From Vitreimonas sp. (GTDB lineage Bacteria > Patescibacteriota > Microgenomatia > UBA1400 > PJMF01), in the NCBI GenBank assembly GCA_035627515.1, contig DASPLQ010000012.1:970331-1034330 (forward strand): a stretch of DNA of 64,000 nt. Direction: 5' to 3'. Below the pieces are notes generated by a model. The model was not told the DNA's origin and searched no databases. It saw nothing but the letters and a program-made list of their open reading frames with translations. The position numbers and the translations under genes are program-made. Positions 1-9,666 of the stretch are shown piece by piece. Position 1 is the first letter of the stretch. Every line of letters begins with the position of its first letter.

Positions 1-2
1 TT

Positions 3-284
3 GTGTTGGCAGTAGCAGCTTGGGCCACTATTAAACGCTCTCGGACGGGCTGGCTGATCTTAGCCGGTCTAGTTACAGCCTTGGTGATCGTGATTATTTG
101 GTTGTTCTTCTGTGATCTGTTACCTTGGCTCTACTACGCCTTGGGTATCACGTTGATTGCTTTGGGTGTACGCGAAATGTGGAAGCAAAATCGCGATCAG
201 CGTCCCCCACAAGTACCTGAACAGCCAGCCATTAATCCGGCTCCACGGCGCCGCCGCGTCAATTTGAGATTTTTCTCGTTGTAA
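3..284 (+). CDS. C-terminal fragment of a membrane protein; the 5' end lies outside the window. Two transmembrane helices are followed by a Pro/Arg-rich tail.
   Basis: Open frame from the window edge. Hydrophobic helices LILAGLVTALVIVIIWLFF and LGITLIALGV. Followed by a strong terminator. Confidence 0.35.
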   Translation: MLAVAAWATIKRSRTGWLILAGLVTALVIVIIWLFFCDLLPWLYYALGITLIALGVREMWKQNRDQRPPQVPEQPAINPAPRRRRVNLRFFSL

Positions 285-636: not shown

Positions 637-1506
637 ATGAAACGCATATTAAAAGCTTTAGTTGTAGTGGGTTTACTCTCAACTAGTGCAGGTATGGGCA
701 CTTACGCTCTCTTCACTAGTTCAGTTTCAGCCGCTAACAACGTTATCCAAACCGGTACTTTACGGTTAGCGATCGACTCTACCCGAGCTCATATCTTAGC
801 TCTCCCACACGTTTGGAACGGTGGTAATGGTGGTGTTGTCGCTCCTTATGACGCCTATACAATCGCTCAAGATGTCAACGGAGTTTCGACTCAATATGAC
901 ACCTTGGAAGCTTGGTTAGGTGCAGCTCCTGGCGCTTTCGATCCTTATATGAACGACGCTGGTGCTGACGCATTACAAGATGGAAACCACAGTTATTGGG
1001 TAGCTTTCCGTAACAACGGTACTATCTCAATGAAAGTTTCCAGTAATGTAACTGGTGGAACATGGACCATGGATCCTGGAGTTGCTGCAACACCAACCTG
1101 TTCAGCCTTCAATCCTAACGTCGCTGGTGTCGTCACTGTCCGTAACGTACATTTGTACGCTGCTGACAACTGTGAGGCCCACGAAGAGTGTGAGAACTTA
1201 TATTACGCTCTCGAGACCGGTCCTTGGAACTATGCTAACACTTACAGTGATGGATCAGCGTTAGCCGCTCCTGTGAACATTGGTAACGGCACTCCTGTGA
1301 CCGGTACTGTGTACGCAACTCAAAACGGTACAACTGCTACTCCAGCTGTTCAGTTAGATGCTTCAGAATACGTGATCGCTCGTATCGATGTTAACTTCGA
1401 TACAACCGGCGTCGTACCTGCTGCTCAAGAGAACTGTTATCAAGGTGCTACTTTCAACTACACGTTGAATGGTAATGCCTATCAAATGACCGACGGTACT
1501 TGGTAG
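637..1506 (+). CDS. Secreted TasA/camelysin-like (M73-family fold) protein with a SipW-cognate-type signal peptide
   Basis: Strong RBS AAAGGAGGTG 9 nt upstream. N-terminus ...GMGTYALFTSSVSAANNVIQTGTLRL parallels TasA GGGTWAAFND...ASGTLDL. Internal RNNGTISMK resembles TasA ENNGSLAIK. Confidence 0.65.
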   Translation: MKRILKALVVVGLLSTSAGMGTYALFTSSVSAANNVIQTGTLRLAIDSTRAHILALPHVWNGGNGGVVAPYDAYTIAQDVNGVSTQYDTLEAWLGAAPGAFDPYMNDAGADALQDGNHSYWVAFRNNGTISMKVSSNVTGGTWTMDPGVAATPTCSAFNPNVAGVVTVRNVHLYAADNCEAHEECENLYYALETGPWNYANTYSDGSALAAPVNIGNGTPVTGTVYATQNGTTATPAVQLDASEYVIARIDVNFDTTGVVPAAQENCYQGATFNYTLNGNAYQMTDGTW

Positions 1507-1548: not shown

Positions 1549-2208
1549 ATGAGCACAAACTCAACTATGAAATCAAAAAGAGCTCAACGAGTAGGATTAT
1601 TTTTCTCAGTTTTAGAGACGGTGGGAATTATTTTATTAGTTGCTTTAGCTGCAATTACTTTTGGGACGCGAATCCCTTTGTTAGCTAACTTAGGAATTAA
1701 CTTTTTTGCGGTGACGTCAGGTTCCATGGAACCAACCATCTCAACTGGCTCACTTATTTATGTGGGAAAGTTTTTACCTGAGGCTCTTAAAGAGGGTGAC
1801 ATCATTACCTATAAAAAGGTCAGTGGTGAAAATACTACCCCAACCGTAATAACTCATCGGATTATCAAGGTTAATAAGACAGAAGAAACCCAACAAACTA
1901 ATTCGGGTGAAAAGAAATTAGTTACGTATGAGTTCAAGACTAAAGGTGATGCTAATGGTCAAGAAGATGCCTATAATGTAGTTTTGGGTGAAATTATTGG
2001 CCTTTATAAATGGCACGTTCCTAGTCTAGGTTACTTAACTTCCTTTGCACAAACCCCCTTTGGATTTGCTACACTGGTAATTGTGCCCGCTGTGATTTTG
2101 GTTATGTGGGAAGTACTTTCATTGATGCTACACTTTAAGCAAGAATACGCATTAAAATCAGAAAGAGAGATCGCAAAACTGCGAGCTGAATTAGAAAACA
2201 AAAGTTAA
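1549..2208 (+). CDS. sipW: Signal peptidase I of the SipW (archaeal/ER-like S26) type
   Basis: Catalytic-serine motif AVTSGSMEPTISTGSLIYV. N-terminal and C-terminal transmembrane helices. Sits immediately after the TasA-like gene. Confidence 0.75.
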   Translation: MSTNSTMKSKRAQRVGLFFSVLETVGIILLVALAAITFGTRIPLLANLGINFFAVTSGSMEPTISTGSLIYVGKFLPEALKEGDIITYKKVSGENTTPTVITHRIIKVNKTEETQQTNSGEKKLVTYEFKTKGDANGQEDAYNVVLGEIIGLYKWHVPSLGYLTSFAQTPFGFATLVIVPAVILVMWEVLSLMLHFKQEYALKSEREIAKLRAELENKS

Positions 2209-2212
2209 AACC

Positions 2213-5200
2213 ATGTCCAAACGAATCACTTTTTTTACTAGCATCAAAATAATTTTACCTTTTATTGCTTTAATGCTGTCGGTAGTTGGTGTGACTTACC
2301 AGTTTAATGGTACTGGTGCTTTTGTTACTTCAGCTGTTCAAGCTGCCAGTAACCTTATTGGTCCTGGTCTTTTCCCAACCCCTTGTACCGAGGGTGAGAA
2401 ATGGTTAGATGAGGTGATTACAGGTCAAACGACCCAAGGACCGTTGAAGAATAACTCTCCAGTCACTGATCCGTTGCGAACTGATCCTACAAAATTGTTG
2501 GGCTCAACCGATAGTGCTTTTTACTCTCTAGGTAAAGCTGGGGTAGTGGTTGCTCGGTTCGAGAACTCGATTGAAGATGGCTCAGGTGATGACTTAGTCA
2601 TCAATGAAGTCACTTTTGGTGATCGTAACACCTATGCAGAAGAGACGGCTTTAGTAGAAGTAAGTCAAGATGGCACGACCTGGTTTGCACTTCCGGAAGC
2701 GGTGACCAGTAAAGCTACTGGTGGTGTGAATGGACTTGATATTTCCAGTACTGGTTTGTCATCAGTCTTATATATCCGTTTAACTGACACTACTAATTTT
2801 GGTCCTCACGACGCCAACGCTGATGGTATTGATATTGAATCAGTACAAGCTATCTACGGCCTCTGTGAAGTCTTACCAGTTGAGTCGGGCTCTATCTCTG
2901 GTGCTAAATACCAAGACAACAACACTAATGGCCAAAAAGATAATGGGGAGAGTGGTTTACAAGGATGGAGTATTTATGCTGGGGTTAAAGTGTGGGAAAG
3001 TGATGTCCAAGCTCAAGATACTCCAGCAGTTAACTCACCAAATCTTGATAACGGTGTTGCATATATTGCGCGAGTCACTGGGACGTACGATGCTGGTGAT
3101 GGTATTAATGCTGATGCTCTGTATTCCTATCGCACACCCACTTCTAGTTCCTGGACTGACGCAGTTAATAGCTACGAAGGTTATGGTCCTACTTTATTAG
3201 ACCTACAAATTGACGGTAGCTCAGTTAGCTGGGGTGATTACAACACTAATCATGTTTATTGGTTGCCATTAACTGGCGCTGGTACCACCAAATCTTTTGA
3301 AATTTATGACCTTAATAATGGTTCTAATAACGCGGGCAACCTCCATGTCGAGTTATTCCGCGTCATTGCTCAAGATATTACCGATGCTACTGGTAATTAC
3401 GATCTCGATTGGTCAGGTTATCCGACGGACACGATTTACCTATTCGAAGGTATGCAAAGTGGCTGGACACAAACCGAGCCCGGTGCAGCTAACTACTATC
3501 ATTCAGTTGCTGCTGATCAACGCGAAAACACCTTCAATTTTGGTAATCAACAAAGTAACGTCAGTGCACCGCAGATTTCCGATGTTACTGTCTGTAAAGT
3601 TGACCAAGCACAACAAGCCCTGAATGGCTGGAAGATGGTGCTTCATCAACCTTCAGTTTTAGAAACAGTGCGTGTTTACCCATCCGATGCCAATGGTGCC
3701 TTCGGCGGCTCAGTTAATCAAATAGTCGCCTCTAGTAACTTAAGTTTGGATGATTACGTCCTGATGGCAAATGGGATGTACACGTACCGCAGTGAGATGA
3801 ATGCGACTAGTAGTGATGCTACCTTCTCACAACGCGCTACTTATGATCCAGTCTATGGTGGTGCATATGCGCCTTGGGTTAACGTCACCACTTTCCCTAA
3901 TCCAAATACGGGTTGGTTAGGAGTGATGGTTAATGGCAGCAGTACCAACTGGGCTAATGCTTACAACCCTGACCATATTTACGCCTTAGGTTATGAAAAT
4001 TACAGTGGTCAATTTAACTTCACTATTCTTGATGACATTTATTCAGACAATAATGGTTACATCGATGTTGCTGTGTACAAAGGATGGGCTCAAGAGACAG
4101 CTAGTAACGGTTGTACGACTTTCCAAGATGTTCCTTATGGTAGTTACACTTTAGAAGAAATTGGTCAAAGTGGTTGGCAATACCAAAGTGGTGACCAAGG
4201 TACAGTCGTTGTCGATGGTGCTACCGAAACCTTTACTTTAGTCAATGCAGCCGTAAATACCAATACTGCTCCTGTTTCTAGCATGACTGTGACCAGTAGT
4301 CCTACAAAACAAATTGAGAATCGAATTTCTAATGGTGGCTTTGAATCAGGCTTGGATAACTGGACACATGTTGGTGATGTAGAAGTCATTAACAGTAGTG
4401 ATGTCAGTGCCGATCCTGCTGTCTTTGGTCAAAAACTGGTTCGCATTGGCCGGCCTACCAGCCCTGGCAACAGTGTGGATGTCAATATCTTGTCACAAGA
4501 TGTCAGCAATGCAGGTAATGGTTTGCGCTCTGTCGGCTTCTGGTACAACTTTAAGACCTTTGAATCAGGTGATGGCTTTGATGAGCCTGGCTTCATGGTT
4601 TTCGTAGGTGATCAGATGGTACACCAAGTATGGGCCAGTGATGTGCTAACAGACAGCAACAGTGCTACCCTCGATGAATCGGGTTGGCAATTCATCTCCA
4701 TTGACTTAACAGACTTGTCTGACTCGACTCTCAGCTTAGCCTTCTATGGTGGAAACTCTGGTGATCTTAGTTATCAGTCATATGTAGAAGTTGATAACGT
4801 CACCACTAATGAAGCCGCTGTAAATGCAGCTGCTGAGTTCACCCTGCAAGCTACCGATAACACTGCCGTCAGTGCCGTTCATTATCGCTACACAGTCGGT
4901 GGTTCGGAAACCCACGTTTCCACTGCCGGTGATACTGTTAACTTCTCCATTACGGCTCAGCCAGACAATGGCATTATCGAGTACTGGGCTGTTGATAGCG
5001 CCAGTATGGAAGAAAATCACAAGAGCTTCCACGTTATGTATGATAATGCAGCGCCCGCAGCTATTGCTAACCTAGATGTTACCGATGATAGTAATGGCGA
5101 CTTTACTTTGACCTGGGTAGCCCCCACAGATGCTAATCCGTATAACCTCGACAAAGCCGCTGAATATGATATCCGCTACGCTACTAATCAAGGGGACTTG

Positions 5201-6289
5201 ACCGCTGCTAACTGGGACAGCTTACCTCAAGCAACAATTAAAAACATCGATGGCTTGCCTGGTGGTGGTACTCGAGCACCTTTAATGTCAGGTAGTACCG
5301 AAGTGTACAGTGTTCACGTCAATGGTAGCTCCAGTGAGTATTGGTTTGCAGTTCGCTCACGAGATCGAGCTCGCAACCTTTCCGATCTCTCAGAGGTTAG
5401 TAGTTCTGGCACCACTAGTACACCAGTCTCAGTTCAAGCTGGCGATGTCATCATTAATGAAGTGATGTGGATGGGTAGCACTACTGGTCCAGCAGATGAG
5501 TGGATTGAGTTGCGCAATATGACTAGTGCTGACATTAACTTAACCAACTGGACAGTTGAAGGCTTAGGAACCGGTGGCGCTTTGACCATTACTTCAGGCA
5601 CCTTACCTGCTAATGGTTACTTCGTCATTGCTAACTCTGCAGCAGCTTCATCTGCCTTACTCAACGAACCTCACTTTGTGACCAGTACTGTTGAGTTAGC
5701 TAACACCGGTGAACAGCTAATTCTCAAAGACAGTAGTGCCGCACTTATCGATCAAACGCCGGCTGGTGTCTGGGCTGCAGGTAGTAATACTGCTCAGAAG
5801 CGATCGATGGAACGCAACAACACTCCTGGTGATGGCAGTGATGTCGCTAATTGGCACAGCTGTGATTCACAAAGCTGTACAGAAGCGCGCTCACTTTATT
5901 GGGACAGTGTAGGGGAGAACTATGGCACACCAAACGCCGCTAACTTATCTTTCACTGAAGCTGAGATAGTGCCTGAAGCTCACTTGACCCAACCTAACCC
6001 TGAGCACGTTTTATTAAGCCTCTCAGGTGTGCAGATCTACACCACTGCTGAATACACTATTGAGTATCAACACGAAGTAGATGGTCAACAGGTCAGTGAT
6101 GCTATTACTGATAAATTGGAGTTTCCATTAACGAGTCGTGATATTAAAACAGCAGAGTTGTTCTTAGGCACCTGTTCTAGCGATGAACAAAGCTGTGTTC
6201 CACACCAAAAAGTCACTTTACTTAAAGCCACAATTACTCTCAAGGCTGAGGGTGTGAGTGACAAAACATTAGCAGTAGAATTAGAATAA
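2213..6289 (+). CDS. Giant (1358 aa) secreted surface or adhesin protein. SipW-cognate-like N-terminus, CnaB/SdrD-B-type repeats, and a C-terminal lamin-tail domain.
   Basis: N-terminus ...VTYQFNGTGAFVTSAVQA. Motif SGAKYQDNNTNGQKDNGESGLQGW is SdrD-B/CnaB-like. LTD motif AGDVIINEVMWMGSTTGPADEWIELRNMTSADINLTNWTV. Confidence 0.6.
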   Translation: MSKRITFFTSIKIILPFIALMLSVVGVTYQFNGTGAFVTSAVQAASNLIGPGLFPTPCTEGEKWLDEVITGQTTQGPLKNNSPVTDPLRTDPTKLLGSTDSAFYSLGKAGVVVARFENSIEDGSGDDLVINEVTFGDRNTYAEETALVEVSQDGTTWFALPEAVTSKATGGVNGLDISSTGLSSVLYIRLTDTTNFGPHDANADGIDIESVQAIYGLCEVLPVESGSISGAKYQDNNTNGQKDNGESGLQGWSIYAGVKVWESDVQAQDTPAVNSPNLDNGVAYIARVTGTYDAGDGINADALYSYRTPTSSSWTDAVNSYEGYGPTLLDLQIDGSSVSWGDYNTNHVYWLPLTGAGTTKSFEIYDLNNGSNNAGNLHVELFRVIAQDITDATGNYDLDWSGYPTDTIYLFEGMQSGWTQTEPGAANYYHSVAADQRENTFNFGNQQSNVSAPQISDVTVCKVDQAQQALNGWKMVLHQPSVLETVRVYPSDANGAFGGSVNQIVASSNLSLDDYVLMANGMYTYRSEMNATSSDATFSQRATYDPVYGGAYAPWVNVTTFPNPNTGWLGVMVNGSSTNWANAYNPDHIYALGYENYSGQFNFTILDDIYSDNNGYIDVAVYKGWAQETASNGCTTFQDVPYGSYTLEEIGQSGWQYQSGDQGTVVVDGATETFTLVNAAVNTNTAPVSSMTVTSSPTKQIENRISNGGFESGLDNWTHVGDVEVINSSDVSADPAVFGQKLVRIGRPTSPGNSVDVNILSQDVSNAGNGLRSVGFWYNFKTFESGDGFDEPGFMVFVGDQMVHQVWASDVLTDSNSATLDESGWQFISIDLTDLSDSTLSLAFYGGNSGDLSYQSYVEVDNVTTNEAAVNAAAEFTLQATDNTAVSAVHYRYTVGGSETHVSTAGDTVNFSITAQPDNGIIEYWAVDSASMEENHKSFHVMYDNAAPAAIANLDVTDDSNGDFTLTWVAPTDANPYNLDKAAEYDIRYATNQGDLTAANWDSLPQATIKNIDGLPGGGTRAPLMSGSTEVYSVHVNGSSSEYWFAVRSRDRARNLSDLSEVSSSGTTSTPVSVQAGDVIINEVMWMGSTTGPADEWIELRNMTSADINLTNWTVEGLGTGGALTITSGTLPANGYFVIANSAAASSALLNEPHFVTSTVELANTGEQLILKDSSAALIDQTPAGVWAAGSNTAQKRSMERNNTPGDGSDVANWHSCDSQSCTEARSLYWDSVGENYGTPNAANLSFTEAEIVPEAHLTQPNPEHVLLSLSGVQIYTTAEYTIEYQHEVDGQQVSDAITDKLEFPLTSRDIKTAELFLGTCSSDEQSCVPHQKVTLLKATITLKAEGVSDKTLAVELE

Positions 6290-6306: not shown

Positions 6307-7671
6307 ATGAAAAAACTCATTGCTGCCTTATTTACCGCTGTTGGTTTGAGTTGGGCTGTAGCCGCTCCAGTTCAGGCTGGTACTAACTTAACTGTTACCT
6401 GTCCCGCTGTTGGCACGTGTAGCATTAGTCCCAGTGGCACACCACTTTTTGACGAAGCTGGTTGGATTCCAGGTTCCAGTGTCACACAGTATTTCCGGAT
6501 GTCTAACACTTCTTCACAAAACGGTTTTGCAGCAGTAGAAGTTGTTAACTACACCGAGACTAAAAACTTAGGTGCAGTGATTGATATTGAGATTCGTAAG
6601 AACTCGCCTTTAGGACCATTGGTGTATAACGGTGTTAGCCTCCATGATTTTAGAGATGATGGCTACTTTACGATCGATGGCATGAATGCCGGTCAAACCA
6701 CTGATTATTTTGTGATTGCTACCATGCGCACTACAGCTGGTAATGAGTACCAAGGTGCTATGGTCCGGTTTGATTTAAATATGGGCTTAGAAATCACCCC
6801 TATCCCACCTCAAAGCGGTGGTGGTGACGGTGCGGGTAACCCCGGTGGCGGTGGTGGTGGCACGTCTGCACCTGGACCAGCTTCACCCCCAGTTTGTACT
6901 GCTCAAGTTCCTTCAGCTGCTCCCAGTGTAACTATCTCTAATGTCGGCACTAATACAGTGACGCTCACTTGGACAGCTGTCAGTCCAGTTACTCATTATG
7001 GCTTATTCTTCACTCGTAACTCTGATGGCGCCCAATACGGTGCCCCCAATATTGGGAATGTGAACTCTTACACCATTACTAACTTGTCGGGTGGTGCTAA
7101 CTATACCTTCCAAGTCTTCGGTGTTAACGACTGTGCTCCTGGACCCCGATCTGGCAATGCTAGCTCCGGTGTGGTGCCAGGTCCGTTCATTGATGCCCGA
7201 CCAGTTGGTCCAGGTGGTCAAGTGCTCGGCGTCAGTACTGAAGCTTCGCCTTCACCTAGTCCCTCTCCTTCACCTTCACCCAGTGCTTCACCATTAGGTG
7301 AGGTGGCAGGCGCTGCCATAGAGGTTTGTTCACAATGGAAACTATATATTCCTTGGATCCTGCTTGTTATGCAGCTATTCTTCATCTTGGTTGCGGAGTA
7401 TTACTTCCGCCGCGATGAAGGTTGGACAAAGTACTTCATTATTGTAGGTGTCACACTAGCGTCCATTGCCATCTTCTATTGGCTCAGAGAGTGTAACTGT
7501 TTCGGACGCTGGTCATGGCTAGTCTGGTTATGTAAATGGTACTGGTTGGTGTCATTGATCTTGACCTTACTACTTCGCTTGTTCAGCTACGCCTTCCTCG
7601 AAGAAACAGAAGACGAGAGTGACAAGCCCAAGCCAGCTGTCAAAAAAGAAGTGGTTGAGATCAAAGAGTAA
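6307..7671 (+). CDS. Secreted protein with a TasA-like N-domain, an FN3-like domain, Gly-rich and (SP)n linkers, and an unusual Cys/Trp-rich three-helix C-terminal membrane anchor
   Basis: Signal peptide AVAAPVQA|GT. WIPGSSVTQYFRMSNTSSQNGFAAVEV is TasA-like. SPSPSPSPSPSPS linker. C-terminal helices contain CNCFGRWSWLVWLCKWYW. Confidence 0.5.
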   Translation: MKKLIAALFTAVGLSWAVAAPVQAGTNLTVTCPAVGTCSISPSGTPLFDEAGWIPGSSVTQYFRMSNTSSQNGFAAVEVVNYTETKNLGAVIDIEIRKNSPLGPLVYNGVSLHDFRDDGYFTIDGMNAGQTTDYFVIATMRTTAGNEYQGAMVRFDLNMGLEITPIPPQSGGGDGAGNPGGGGGGTSAPGPASPPVCTAQVPSAAPSVTISNVGTNTVTLTWTAVSPVTHYGLFFTRNSDGAQYGAPNIGNVNSYTITNLSGGANYTFQVFGVNDCAPGPRSGNASSGVVPGPFIDARPVGPGGQVLGVSTEASPSPSPSPSPSPSASPLGEVAGAAIEVCSQWKLYIPWILLVMQLFFILVAEYYFRRDEGWTKYFIIVGVTLASIAIFYWLRECNCFGRWSWLVWLCKWYWLVSLILTLLLRLFSYAFLEETEDESDKPKPAVKKEVVEIKE

Positions 7672-7707: not shown

Positions 7708-8652
7708 GTGTCAAATCTGCTCAAAACGTTAGCGCACTTGTTTCATCCACGGCGATCCAATAACCACCGGGCGCGTGTGCTGCACCCCGAAGCATTAGCC
7801 TATCTGATTTTGATCGTGATTGGCTTTGGGGGTTTAATCCAAAGCGTTAGTTTTTTACCACTGGGGTGGGGTGATGTTTTAGGTTTTGCCTCTTCTATTA
7901 CTCCTAATCAAGTTATCGAACAGACCAATCAAGAACGCCAAAAAGTGGGTTTGCCTCCGCTGGTTTATAACGAACGTTTAGCCCAGGCAGCCCTTTCCAA
8001 AGGCCAAGATATGTTCTCTGAACAATACTGGGCCCATACCTCACCAGCCGGAAAGCAACCATGGGCGTTTATTAAAGACTCAGGATATACCTACCGAGCT
8101 GCTGGAGAAAATCTAGCGCGTGATTTTTCAAATACCGATGACATGGTCCGAGCTTGGATGGCGTCACCTACGCACCGGGCTAACATCGTCAATGCCAAGT
8201 ATCAAGAAATTGGGATTGCGGTCATTGATGGTGAGTTGCAAGGTTTTGAAACAACATTGGTAGTCCAGATGTTTGGAACCCCAATGGCTGGCGCACCACA
8301 GGTAGCACAGGCTGAGGAGCCCGTAGCCGTAGTCAATGAAGTAGTCCCAGTGGAAGAAACAGCACCTTTACCCGTTGCAACCGAAACCCAACCCAACACT
8401 CCCACGGTGCTAGCTCAAGCGTTAGTTCCCCAGGGTAGTCTTACGGTGCCACCCTTTTTCTCACCGCTGCACTTAACCAAAGCCTTTTTCTTAGCTGTGA
8501 TCTTGTTATTAATTTTTACTCTCATTTACGATGCATTCATTATCAGTCATCGCCAAACCTTACGCTTAGTGGGCAAGAACTTGGGTCATATCATCTTTTT
8601 GACCATCATTGGCTTTTTGGTGATTTTATTTAAGGGAGGCTTAGTAGGCTAA
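7708..8652 (+). CDS. CAP/SCP (PR-1-like, YkwD-type) domain protein with an N-terminal transmembrane helix and a C-terminal transmembrane helix. GTG start.
   Basis: NQERQKVGLPPLVYNERLAQAALSKGQDM...WAHTSPAG...NIVNAKYQEIGIAV is typical of the CAP superfamily. Confidence 0.6.
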   Translation: MSNLLKTLAHLFHPRRSNNHRARVLHPEALAYLILIVIGFGGLIQSVSFLPLGWGDVLGFASSITPNQVIEQTNQERQKVGLPPLVYNERLAQAALSKGQDMFSEQYWAHTSPAGKQPWAFIKDSGYTYRAAGENLARDFSNTDDMVRAWMASPTHRANIVNAKYQEIGIAVIDGELQGFETTLVVQMFGTPMAGAPQVAQAEEPVAVVNEVVPVEETAPLPVATETQPNTPTVLAQALVPQGSLTVPPFFSPLHLTKAFFLAVILLLIFTLIYDAFIISHRQTLRLVGKNLGHIIFLTIIGFLVILFKGGLVG

Positions 8653-8909
8653 TGAAAAATGAACTTCTCCGCCATCGCTTAGCTTACCTGATTTTAGTGA
8701 CAGGTTTAGGTGGGTTGACCTTGCTTTATTTGTCAGTGTGGCCAAATCTGGCATATCAACGACTTGTGATTTTAGCGTTATGTTTGTTTTATTTTGCATG
8801 GGGAGTAAGTACTCATTTGAAGACTGACCGTTACACCAACCGCGTTGCCTATGAATACTTGGGGATGTCTGCGCTGGGAGGAATGGTATTATTTCTTGTC
8901 ACCTTGTGA
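8652..8909 (+). CDS. Small membrane protein (3 transmembrane helices), hypothetical
   Basis: ATGA-type overlap with the upstream gene. Hydrophobic helices. Confidence 0.35.
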   Translation: MKNELLRHRLAYLILVTGLGGLTLLYLSVWPNLAYQRLVILALCLFYFAWGVSTHLKTDRYTNRVAYEYLGMSALGGMVLFLVTL

Positions 8910-8946
8910 CATATCTATGATAGACTAACCCACAGGAAAGGACTCT

Positions 8947-9666
8947 ATGAAAGGTATTATTTTAGCTGGTGGCTCTGGGACGCGTTTGCGACCTCTCACC
9001 AAAGTCACTAGTAAACAGTTACTGCCCATTTACAACAAGCCCATGATTTTTTATCCGTTGGAAACGTTGTTGACGGCCGGTATCAAGGATATCTTAATCA
9101 TAGTGGCTCCAGATCATGCCGGTGACTTTTTGAAGTTACTAGGTAGTGGCAAAGAATTCGGCTGCAAATTCACCTATGAAATTCAAGATAAACCTGAAGG
9201 TTTAGCTCAGGCTTTTATTATTGGTGAAAATTTTATTGGTAATGATTCCGTGACCCTCATTTTAGGGGATAATGTTTTCGAAGATAATTTTTCTGAGGCA
9301 ATTACTGGTTTCCAACGCGGTGGCCGTATTTTTGCTAAGAAAGTCAGTGACCCAGAGCGGTTTGGTGTGGTGGAGTTTGATGAAAATACCAAGGCTATTT
9401 CTATTGAAGAAAAACCAGCTCAACCCAAATCAAATTACGCAGTCACTGGTTTGTATATTTATGACAATACTGTGGTTCAAAAAGCTCGTAATCTTCAGCC
9501 TTCCCCTCGTGGTGAGTTAGAAATTACTGATCTGAACAATGTCTATCTTCGGGAGGGTTCGTTAGATGTCGCTTTTGTAGAAGGTAAATGGTTAGACACT
9601 GGGACCTTTGAATCATTATTTGAAGCCATTGCCTTTGCGCGCGAAAAAGAACTCGTAAAAGCTTAA
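8947..9666 (+). CDS. Sugar-phosphate nucleotidyltransferase, RmlA-like (glucose-1-phosphate thymidylyltransferase family), short form
   Basis: [53 protein letters not shown] is a near-consensus RmlA N-terminus. At 239 aa it is shorter than canonical RmlA. Confidence 0.65.

Follow-up and report, generated by a model that had tools for sequence, protein, structure and literature searches.

In Bacillus subtilis, where the genes lie in the order tapA-sipW-tasA, the TasA subunits of the fibre each donate an N-terminal strand to the next subunit and TapA (YqxM) can sit only at the beginning of the filament; the smallest part of TapA that is active, residues 44-57, is freed by the signal peptidase SipW and donates a strand that complements TasA (PMC10151520). 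We have analysed a 64,000-nucleotide (nt) stretch of contig DASPLQ010000012.1, hereafter the window, which comes from an ultra-small bacterium of the patescibacterial lineage Microgenomatia. One uninterrupted open reading frame (ORF) of the window, at positions 2213 to 6289 of the plus strand with its stop codon included, encodes a protein of 1358 amino acids (aa), P0001, that contains a lamin-tail domain (LTD). The ORF starts 4 nt past the stop codon of the gene for a SipW-like peptidase (P0002, 1549 to 2208), in agreement with a first-pass annotation of this DNA, which had placed the LTD gene directly after sipW. We propose, with moderate confidence, that P0001 is an enlarged accessory "plug" subunit, or distal adhesin, of a membrane-anchored fibre of the TasA type that is conserved across Patescibacteria.

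Like P0001, TapA is encoded beside sipW and a gene of the TasA type, and its SipW-freed N-terminus, joined to a beta-sandwich body without an acceptor groove, mimics the strand of the fibre subunit (PMC10151520). The two proteins differ greatly in size and content: TapA has about 250 aa and a single immunoglobulin (Ig) domain, whereas P0001 consists of a domain like carbohydrate-binding module (CBM) family 32, two CnaB-like modules, a further CBM-like domain, and Ig, fibronectin type III (fn3), LTD and C-terminal (CTD) domains. Gene order differs also, being tapA, sipW, tasA in Bacillus and tasA-like, sipW, LTD gene here. The TapA/YqxM model TIGR04087 gave no match on P0001, and a relative, P0007, reached 12.8 bits against a cut-off of 80; the likeness to TapA is one of function, not of sequence. 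We know of no Bacillus counterpart of a membrane-anchored, acceptor-only partner such as the protein encoded downstream of P0001 (P0004).

The archaeal bundling pili formed with AbpA and AbpB are likewise a donor-strand filament of the TasA superfamily with a larger neighbouring protein; AbpB of Pyrobaculum calidifontis has been proposed both to supply the first complementing strand and to bear adhesive beta-domains, and homologues of PF12389 in Patescibacteria are mentioned in one sentence of the same report (PMC9245690). That system uses a generic signal peptidase and has neither a dedicated SipW nor an LTD, and no membrane-anchored acceptor has been described for it. The Pam pili (PamA/B, PamT, PamR) reported in 2026 from the candidate phyla radiation (CPR) belong to the same superphylum as our organism and are donor-strand-exchange filaments without a trans-envelope machine; their membrane end, like P0004, is an fn3-containing protein with a C-terminal helix (PMC13278184). 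However, each Pam pilin has two Ig-like domains and donates the linker strand between them, the system includes membrane-anchored PapD/FimC-like chaperones, and no SipW, TasA-like or LTD component has been reported for it (PMC13278184). The polarity also differs, in that the tip of the Pam pilus is acceptor-only and a tip formed by P0001 would be donor-only. Pam is a different system of similar logic. With SpaA and SdrD, which represent the sortase pilins and the microbial surface components recognizing adhesive matrix molecules (MSCRAMMs), P0001 shares the CnaB/prealbumin-like fold and the positions of a Lys/Glu/Asn triad in two of its modules (D2 and D3, below); unlike them, it has no C-terminal LPXTG or wall anchor, has a large insert in each module and would be attached by strand insertion instead of by sortase. 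Full-text searches of the literature found no paper that links a lamin-tail domain to SipW or TasA or that describes the present cassette. P0001 is a very large member of an undescribed family, and the system is a variant of the TasA/TapA/SipW kind.

The genes of the cassette and the N-terminal features of P0001 on which the argument turns are located in the window as follows.

637-1506, plus strand: P0003, TasA/camelysin-like putative shaft subunit of 289 aa, with a SipW-type signal and an N-terminal strand
1549-2208, plus strand: P0002, SipW-like signal peptidase I of 219 aa (TIGR02228)
2213-6289, plus strand: P0001, LTD protein of 1358 aa (whole ORF)
2213-2320, plus strand: signal peptide of P0001, aa 1-36, with K3 and R4 in the n-region, an h-region at aa 7-27 and a c-region ending in NGTGA
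2321-2368, plus strand: putative donor strand of P0001, aa 37-52 (FVTSAVQAASNLIGPG), resembling the P0003 strand (8 of 16 residues identical)
6307-7671, plus strand: P0004, putative membrane-anchored base, with a TasA-like domain, fn3 and C-terminal helices
7708-8652, plus strand: CAP-domain membrane protein, the conserved next gene of the cassette (PF00188, 73.5 bits)

We compared 12 neighbourhoods of homologous genes and observed in most of them the order TasA-like gene, sipW, LTD gene, fn3/anchor gene and CAP gene, often continued by a gene for an 85-aa membrane protein and a nucleoside triphosphate (NTP)-transferase gene; the CAP gene was present in 11 of the 12 and the two smaller genes in most. 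The exceptions were L009, which has neither sipW nor a separate TasA-like gene and in which the LTD protein bears a TasA-like domain of its own, and L003, where no downstream fn3 or CAP match was found. No fn3 match was found in L009 or L010, and L010 and L011 end at contig edges. L004 has a 401-aa LTD gene 4 kb upstream of its cassette; it is similar to the gene for a second LTD protein of 434 aa in the genome of the window (C12:548790-550094, minus strand), which is not beside sipW.

A wider scan, limited to one genome per species, gave at least 556 confirmed LTD-type matches, a number that does not bear out the view of the first-pass annotation that the domain is unusual in bacteria. We scored the best 80 loci with hidden Markov models (HMMs) of our own. 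As the locus search started from 11 closer sequences and its patterns consisted mostly of the LTD motif, these 80 loci represent the closest LTD genes and not the full core of P0001. All 80 carry an LTD gene, with sipW directly upstream of it in 48 and fused to it in 15, so that the peptidase is adjacent or fused in at least 63 loci across Patescibacteria. A TasA-like gene lies upstream in 56, and in 49 the next gene downstream is that of a strand-less TasA-like anchor protein resembling P0004, a further 10 loci having no contig room for one. The LTD protein has its own N-terminal TasA-like domain at 26 of the loci and the CTD at 11. The lineages represented among the 80 are Roizman-, Levy-, Davies-, Curtiss-, Collier- and Beckwithbacteria of the Microgenomates, Moran-, Kuenen-, Andersen- and Buchananbacteria of the Parcubacteria, and Saccharibacteria, WWE3, Dojkabacteria and Berkelbacteria; the LTD genes in the list that lack SipW are from other phyla (Latescibacterota, Elusimicrobiota, Aminicenantia, Cytophagia). 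By the homology of its LTD core and by its place between sipW and the strand-less anchor gene, P0001 is a member of this family. Several records with a cassette of the Patescibacteria type are titled as uncultured Gammaproteobacteria or Bdellovibrionales (L014, L018, L024, L025, L029, L034, L037, and likewise L047, L050, L053, L055, L063, L077 and L081); these binned assemblies probably bear incorrect organism names.

The smallest members of the family, of about 230 aa, contain little beyond a signal, a strand and an LTD. This makes the LTD the one constant globular part, and P0001 is a member that has been enlarged. The full core was found mainly in records of the Microgenomatia type (L012-L017, L030), and the modules between strand and core are swapped among relatives, which have CBM32-like, Golvesin_C-like, fn3 or TasA-like domains in this position.

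In the fusions (L012, L016, L017, L018, L021, L030, L039, L044, L049, L051, L055, L063, L066, L077 and L079) a single reading frame encodes the peptidase and its presumed substrate, the LTD protein. In P0030, P0034 and P0031, SipW is fused in front of the LTD protein and the signal motif follows the last helix of the peptidase, as in ANA↓LFMDKVTVSG of P0030 (here and below the arrow marks the expected cut), which argues that the LTD protein is a substrate of that peptidase. Such an arrangement, read from the sequences, implies self-cleavage in cis, which would be rare for a signal peptidase. The earlier proposal of a secreted surface protein that has several domains and a functional tie to sipW is supported.

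P0002 itself matched TIGR02228, the model for signal peptidases of the archaeal and endoplasmic reticulum (ER) type, with 100.5 bits (cut-off 51.85), and the Bacillus SipW model with 98.6 bits, which is under the equivalog cut-off of that model. A membrane helix lies toward each of its two ends (hydrophobic segments at aa 13 and 166). Because a separate signal peptidase of the LepB type is encoded elsewhere in the genome by a single gene (C12:1142480-1142974, 153.9 bits), we regard P0002 as a second, dedicated peptidase.

The N-terminus of P0001 has a single hydrophobic segment. A lipoprotein signal was considered and ruled out, the first Cys being at aa 58, so that there is no lipobox. Cleavage by SipW is likely after Ala36 (NGTGA↓FVTS), nine residues past the h-region; this position is predicted from the register with relatives and with TasA, which is cut at GTWA↓AFND so that the mature protein starts at A28, consistent with PMC10151520. 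The same register makes the site suggested in the first-pass annotation, after AVQA (Ala44), probably not the correct one. In P0003 the corresponding sequence is TYA↓LFTSSVSAANNVIQTG, and in P0007, a more distant member of the P0001 family, the canonical motif is found as TNA↓YFSDVELSEDNLFTAS; the N-termini of P0021, P0024, P0011-13, P0026, P0029 and P0035 resemble that of P0007. The clade of P0001 has instead the variant TGA↓F(V/L/F)TS..(Q/T)AASN.I..G. The curated model of SipW-cognate signals, TIGR04088 (cut-off 19), gave 20.4 bits with P0003, 22.4 bits with P0007 and 18.4 bits with P0024, and an independent HMM of the relatives' N-termini found P0003 (27.6 bits) as its sole significant match in the genome. 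A motif scan of 3659 ORFs matched only the two genes that flank sipW, which is weak evidence because the pattern was written after both sequences had been seen. The signal of P0001 is, as we read the alignments, a divergent variant of the SipW type that can be recognised by comparison only. The SipW-like signal that had been suggested for P0001 thus stands on its comparative side, through sipW adjacency and fusion and the co-variation described next, and falls where the curated model is concerned.

We asked how the 16 mature N-terminal residues of LTD proteins compare with cognate and non-cognate TasA-like strands. Over 8 loci, this window included, cognate pairs had 59 identical residues where 35.4 were expected (exact permutation p = 0.0011; 0.00045 when scored with BLOSUM62), the comparison being of ungapped 16-mers in a register set by eye. 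In 44 further, independent loci, for which the strands were placed by HMM alignment, cognate pairs shared 7.86 of 16 residues against 6.1 (0 of 200,000 permutations, z = 8.7), and the excess persisted in the 40 loci that were non-redundant (z = 8.4). It was concentrated at positions P1' (+0.17), P6' (+0.35), P8' (+0.24), P13' (+0.22) and P15' (+0.18), and none was observed at P7 to P1, on the signal side. In this window, P0001 and P0003 depart from the family consensus in the same way, with V for E at P6', A for S at P8' and I for F at P13'. The alternation of these positions and the absence of excess on the signal side fit one face of a beta-strand better than they fit a peptidase site. Paralogues that had diverged before their species should show no cognate excess, and the excess therefore points to shared constraint or sequence exchange.

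These results bear on an alternative that we consider unlikely, namely that P0001 acts on its own, as an adhesin secreted or loosely attached to the surface, which shares the operon and the special signal only because SipW processes it and which forms part of no fibre. Its CBM32-like, CnaB-like, fn3 and Ig domains are those of an ordinary large adhesin, its N-terminus fails the curated signal model, L009 does without an adjacent sipW or a separate TasA-like gene, and AlphaFold2 (AF2) gave no structure for aa 37-52, which had a low predicted local distance difference test (pLDDT) score in the monomer model and so lie outside any folded domain. Yet co-variation that reaches P15' and is absent from the signal side is hard to explain by peptidase recognition alone; family members of about 230 aa amount to little more than strand and LTD, and a soluble adhesin would need no conserved strand; and a membrane-anchored partner that can only accept is encoded next door in 49 of the best 80 loci.

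The two partner proteins in the window complete the arrangement. P0003 scored 119.5 bits in a leave-one-out HMM of the TasA-like set of the cassette, and its relatives are weak or passing on PF12389. P0004 (181.7 bits in its own leave-one-out HMM) has an ordinary signal peptide, a TasA-like jelly roll, a Gly-rich linker, an fn3 domain (39.3 bits), an (SP)n linker and, at its C-terminus, three helices that are hydrophobic (aa 344, 375 and 404); 34 of 49 relatives also end in hydrophobic segments. In hhalign comparisons, the N-domain of P0004 aligned with the TasA-like domains of LTD proteins (Prob 93.9%, E 1.5e-7, 114 columns) from a point just past the donor strand, and its last strand aligned with the P0003 family (Prob 96.7%). 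The outcome for anchor against shaft depended on sampling, with a Prob of 17.7% from five sequences each and of 94-97% from 11 and 8 sequences. No TasA-like domain was detected in P0001 by PF12389 or by the TasA-like HMMs of the cassette (0.2 and -20 bits), unlike P0007, P0021, P0024 and P0026, which have such a domain at their own N-termini. From their sequences the three proteins would form a complementary trio: P0001 with a strand only, P0003 with strand and groove, and P0004 with groove and membrane anchor. We also noticed that aa 340-430 of P0004 are rich in Cys and Trp (RECNCFGRWSW..WLCKWYW), a property kept in its relatives and in a giant protein encoded upstream; the C-terminus of P0004 looks like a specific anchoring module rather than a set of generic helices.

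The mechanism that we propose is as follows. P0001 would be exported by Sec, and the SipW-like peptidase would cut both it, after Ala36, and P0003. The cut would free the unstructured segment FVTSAVQAASNLIGPG as a mimic of the N-terminal strand of P0003, and this strand would complement a TasA-like domain by entering its open groove, a donor-strand mechanism that experiments have demonstrated for TapA and TasA of B. subtilis. P0003 would polymerise by strand donation, P0004 would take the free strand at the membrane end, and P0001 would fill the groove left empty at the other end, giving the order membrane - P0004 <- (P0003)n <- P0001. Since P0001 has a strand and lacks a TasA-like acceptor, it could cap one end of the fibre only. 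Its body would project distally as an adhesin, with the CBM32-like domain followed by two CnaB-like stalk modules and the CBM-like, Ig, fn3, LTD and CTD domains. The sequences show the domain content, the conservation of the cassette, the gene fusions, the co-variation of the strands and the lack of an anchor or acceptor domain in P0001, whereas the cleavage site, the strand insertion, the fibre polarity, the ligand and the role of the LTD are parts of this scheme that we infer. Three comparative results, namely the conserved cassette, the fusion of SipW with LTD proteins and the tracking of the cognate TasA-like strand, favour the suggestion of the first-pass annotation that the protein is the tip or the anchor of a putative fibre.

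A number of observations weigh against this proposal. TIGR04088 gave no match to the N-terminus of P0001 even at E up to 10, and the independent HMM of the relatives' N-termini gave it 2.3 bits, which is not significant; the signal was assigned because the rest of the protein is homologous to family members and because it resembles P0003. The register of the 8-locus test was chosen by eye, and the similarity of strands within a genome could be due in part to gene conversion or composition. Past its first 50 or so residues, P0003 appears TasA-like by profile matches only. Finally, the tip position is deduced from the anchor protein, and TapA, the nearest analogue, is thought to be cell-proximal, sub-stoichiometric and chaperone-like.

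In another reading, less probable in our view than the stand-alone adhesin, P0001 would strictly be a TapA-like, sub-stoichiometric nucleator or chaperone that sets off the polymerisation of P0003 at the cell surface and perhaps ties it to the envelope through the LTD, and would be no distal adhesin. It would share with TapA the logic of a SipW-cut strand on a complete beta-sandwich body with no acceptor groove (PMC10151520), and the invariance of the LTD within the family suits a part in assembly or anchoring better than it suits variable adhesion. However, the separate, membrane-anchored acceptor already supplies an anchor, P0001 has neither a membrane nor a wall-sorting signal, its relatives swap their N-terminal modules as freely as is typical of ligand-binding ends, and no sequence kinship to TapA was detected with TIGR04087. 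A broader generalisation, which we offer tentatively and with rather less confidence than the proposal for P0001 itself, is that a plug-and-socket system of donor-strand display is widespread in Patescibacteria, with a base rooted in the membrane, whose strand-less TasA-like socket is borne on a stalk of fn3 and linker, from zero to several TasA-like shaft subunits, and a strand-only LTD tip. In such a system the strand would co-evolve with the shaft, and the dedicated ER-type peptidase would expose it and, where fused, would cut itself off. If this is true, the polarity, with a donor-only tip and an acceptor-only base, would be the reverse of that of chaperone-usher and Pam pili, and P0001 would be among the most elaborate tips, carrying a CBM32-like lectin, two isopeptide-type stalk modules, the LTD and a rare Cys-looped end domain toward the host cell.

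Matching against homologues divided P0001 into five parts: the signal and strand (aa 1 to about 52), domains D1, D2 and D3, and a core at aa 682-1358. The folded domains are listed here, with the evidence for each.

2381-2869, plus strand: D1, aa 57-219, jelly roll like CBM32, F5/8 type C and galactose-binding domains (AF2, Foldseek)
2879-3556, plus strand: D2, aa 223-448, CnaB/SpaA-pilin-like sandwich (AF2, Foldseek)
3566-4252, plus strand: D3, aa 452-680, CnaB/SpaA-like paralogue of D2, likewise with an insert (PF17802, similarity to D2)
4274-4822, plus strand: jelly-roll, CBM-like module, aa 688-870, with the motif NGGFESGL..W (core alignment; AF2 pLDDT about 70-88)
4835-5041, plus strand: Ig-like domain, aa 875-943 (AF2 pLDDT above 90; NF047441 OmpL47 weak, 16 bits)
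5060-5407, plus strand: fn3 domain, aa 950-1065 (PF00041 16.2 bits, sub-threshold; AF2)
5435-5779, plus strand: lamin-tail domain, aa 1075-1189 (PF00932)
5915-6286, plus strand: CTD, aa 1235-1358, beta-sandwich with an invariant G-T-C-S...C (Cys1321/Cys1328) (AF2 pLDDT about 80-94)

The N-terminal half was examined with an AF2 model of aa 1-451 (21 aligned sequences, mean pLDDT 81), which does not include D3. D1 was modelled with a pLDDT of about 90, has a conserved Cys58-Cys218 pair, and in Foldseek searches of the PDB matched the CBM32 of AlyQ (7d29/7d2a) with template modelling (TM) scores of 0.67-0.69, and also 3f2z, 3ggl and 2jda. The same model matched the SpaA shaft pilin (5hbb/5f44/5hts; E 1e-4 to 1e-3, prob 0.9-0.99), and SdrD and UafA as well, in the region of D2; the TM-scores for D2 are low since the model includes the other domains and the insert, a beta-rich segment of about 130 aa (aa ~258-385). 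D3 is 24% identical to D2 over its whole length, insert included (E 2e-5), and has a Cys461-Cys634 pair. The SpaA/prealbumin-like model PF17802 (cut-off 23.1) matched D3 at aa ~603-677 with 24.2 bits in the whole protein and 29.7 bits in the isolated piece, and gave no match to D2. Residues K232, E412 and N445 of D2 are invariant in 13 of 13 homologues and occupy the positions of the isopeptide triad of CnaB pilins, and K462, E648 and N678 of D3 lie in motifs that correspond to the D2 triad; Lys-Asn isopeptide bonds assisted by Glu are putative in both modules.

D2 also contains a D-x-N-x-N-G loop like that of SdrD_B (D-N-N-T-N-G-Q-K-D-N-G-E, with D243 in 10 of 13 homologues and G240 in 12 of 13), for which calcium binding is putative; D3 lacks it. 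The SdrD_B model PF17210 (cut-off 29.7) matched P0001 with 12.3 bits and E 0.2, through its first 23 profile positions only, at aa ~232-254. The earlier description of the body as CnaB/SdrD-B repeats is therefore right in that two paralogous CnaB/SpaA-like modules are present, and wrong as to SdrD_B and to a canonical run of repeats, each module being split by the insert of about 130 aa; nor is a body of Ca-binding SdrD-B modules supported, as the loop occurs in the first module only and the SdrD_B model fails. D1, D2 and D3 recur in other orders in SdrD_B/SpaA-rich proteins of 1600-2300 aa in the same phylum. A sequence search of solved structures found nothing for the N-terminal part of P0001, and Pfam searches with isolated pieces gave no match for D1, the insert, the CBM-like domain or the CTD. 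By position, the eight Cys residues of P0001 form four conserved pairs.

An LPLTG sequence at aa 351-355 (window 3263-3277) was considered as a sortase signal and rejected, since it lies inside the D2 insert and 1000 residues follow it; it could mislead automated annotation. No C-terminal anchor or terminal sorting motif was found in P0001.

The core aligned with about 30 homologues at 29-59% identity, the N-termini being otherwise different. An AF2 model of aa 680-1358 (25 sequences, pLDDT 79.7, predicted TM score 0.69) was a chain of beta-sandwiches, and Foldseek with this model returned generic strings of Ig, fn3 and macroglobulin domains only, with no fold identity for the CBM-like domain, the LTD or the CTD. 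The name CBM-like for aa 688-870 is our reading of the motif and the modelled secondary structure; the module is present in the larger family members and lacking in the minimal ones of about 230 aa. An fn3 domain was recorded in relatives as well, and the family profile matched the fn3 of chitinase A1 (1k85) with E 1.7e-8, the only match of the core to a solved structure in the sequence search.

The LTD motif noted at first pass is present: PF00932 (cut-off 34.3) matched aa 1075-1181 with 54.2 bits in the whole protein and 60.2 bits in the isolated piece, and AF2 placed an all-beta segment over this region (aa ~1079-1204, pLDDT about 70-93). It does not end the protein, as had been thought, for about 170 residues follow it, comprising a Cys-containing linker and the conserved 124-aa CTD. 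In some bacteria lamin-tail domains are found together with extracellular nucleases and phosphatases, and Patescibacteria rely on nucleotides that they scavenge; on these general grounds P0001 might bind DNA or scavenge nucleic acids at the cell surface, or might act together with a hydrolase, a reading to which we give very little weight. The binding of host material or extracellular DNA that the first-pass annotation suggested is likewise hypothetical. Pfam and NCBIfam searches of P0001 and its neighbours revealed no catalytic domain, whether of a nuclease, a phosphatase or another enzyme, and a hydrolase or nuclease role was rejected on this ground; the most similar LTD genes, those of the best 80 loci, are tied to SipW/TasA-like cassettes and not to hydrolases.

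Few proteins have the CTD (61 representative clusters among 1.84 billion proteins), and its position is nearly always C-terminal. The genome has three further copies, of which one is in a giant protein of 2261 aa. The family HMM located the GTCS...C domain in two small proteins, of 269 aa (C12:1071281-1072090, plus strand) and 233 aa (C12:626071-626772, minus strand), with 24 and 17 bits. The giant (C12:963829-970614) starts upstream of the window, which opens with its last 93 codons.

1-284, plus strand: C-terminal end of the 2261-aa giant surface protein

The giant consists of many SdrD_B-type repeats and a Golvesin_C-like module, and its C-terminal region, made up of fn3, linker and membrane anchor, is homologous to aa 167-399 of P0004 (172 bits). 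Its N-terminus carries the copy of the CTD (aa 43-124, 33.3 bits with the CTD HMM). A domain of the CTD type thus closes P0001, whose attachment would be through the N-terminus, and is N-terminal in the giant, which is anchored by its C-terminus; it would be at the free end in both, a small point of consistency in support of the proposed topology. The giant and the cassette together are a surface-protein island.

The assembly has 1.51 Mb and is 94.6% complete, and the window lies on a contig of 1.41 Mb. P0001 has no paralogue in this genome; its homologues in Patescibacteria are up to 57-60% identical, the closest bearing the names Patescibacteria, Dojkabacteria and Microgenomates. After the anchor gene, positions 7708-9666 of the window encode the CAP protein with its membrane segments, the 85-aa membrane protein, which has two helices, and the NTP-transferase, which is RmlA-like. 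Wall remodelling and glycosylation of the (SP)n linker are possibilities for a link of these genes to the fibre. Farther downstream are housekeeping genes (frr, rseP, secDF, the gene for the CCA-adding enzyme, and recJ).

A large fraction of the diversity of bacteria belongs to the Patescibacteria, which live in attachment to other microorganisms; to our knowledge, the means of this attachment are known only from a handful of type IV pili and from the Pam pili reported in 2026. If our proposal is correct, these organisms would possess a second widely conserved, membrane-rooted fibre, built on the TasA principle and fitted with swappable adhesin tips, which would be a direct candidate for host recognition. 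The co-varying positions of the strand provide concrete residues for mutation. The lamin-tail domain of bacteria would gain a defined structural context, and the idea derived from TapA, that a strand freed by a signal peptidase starts or caps a fibre, would pass from a peculiarity of Bacillus to a general design.

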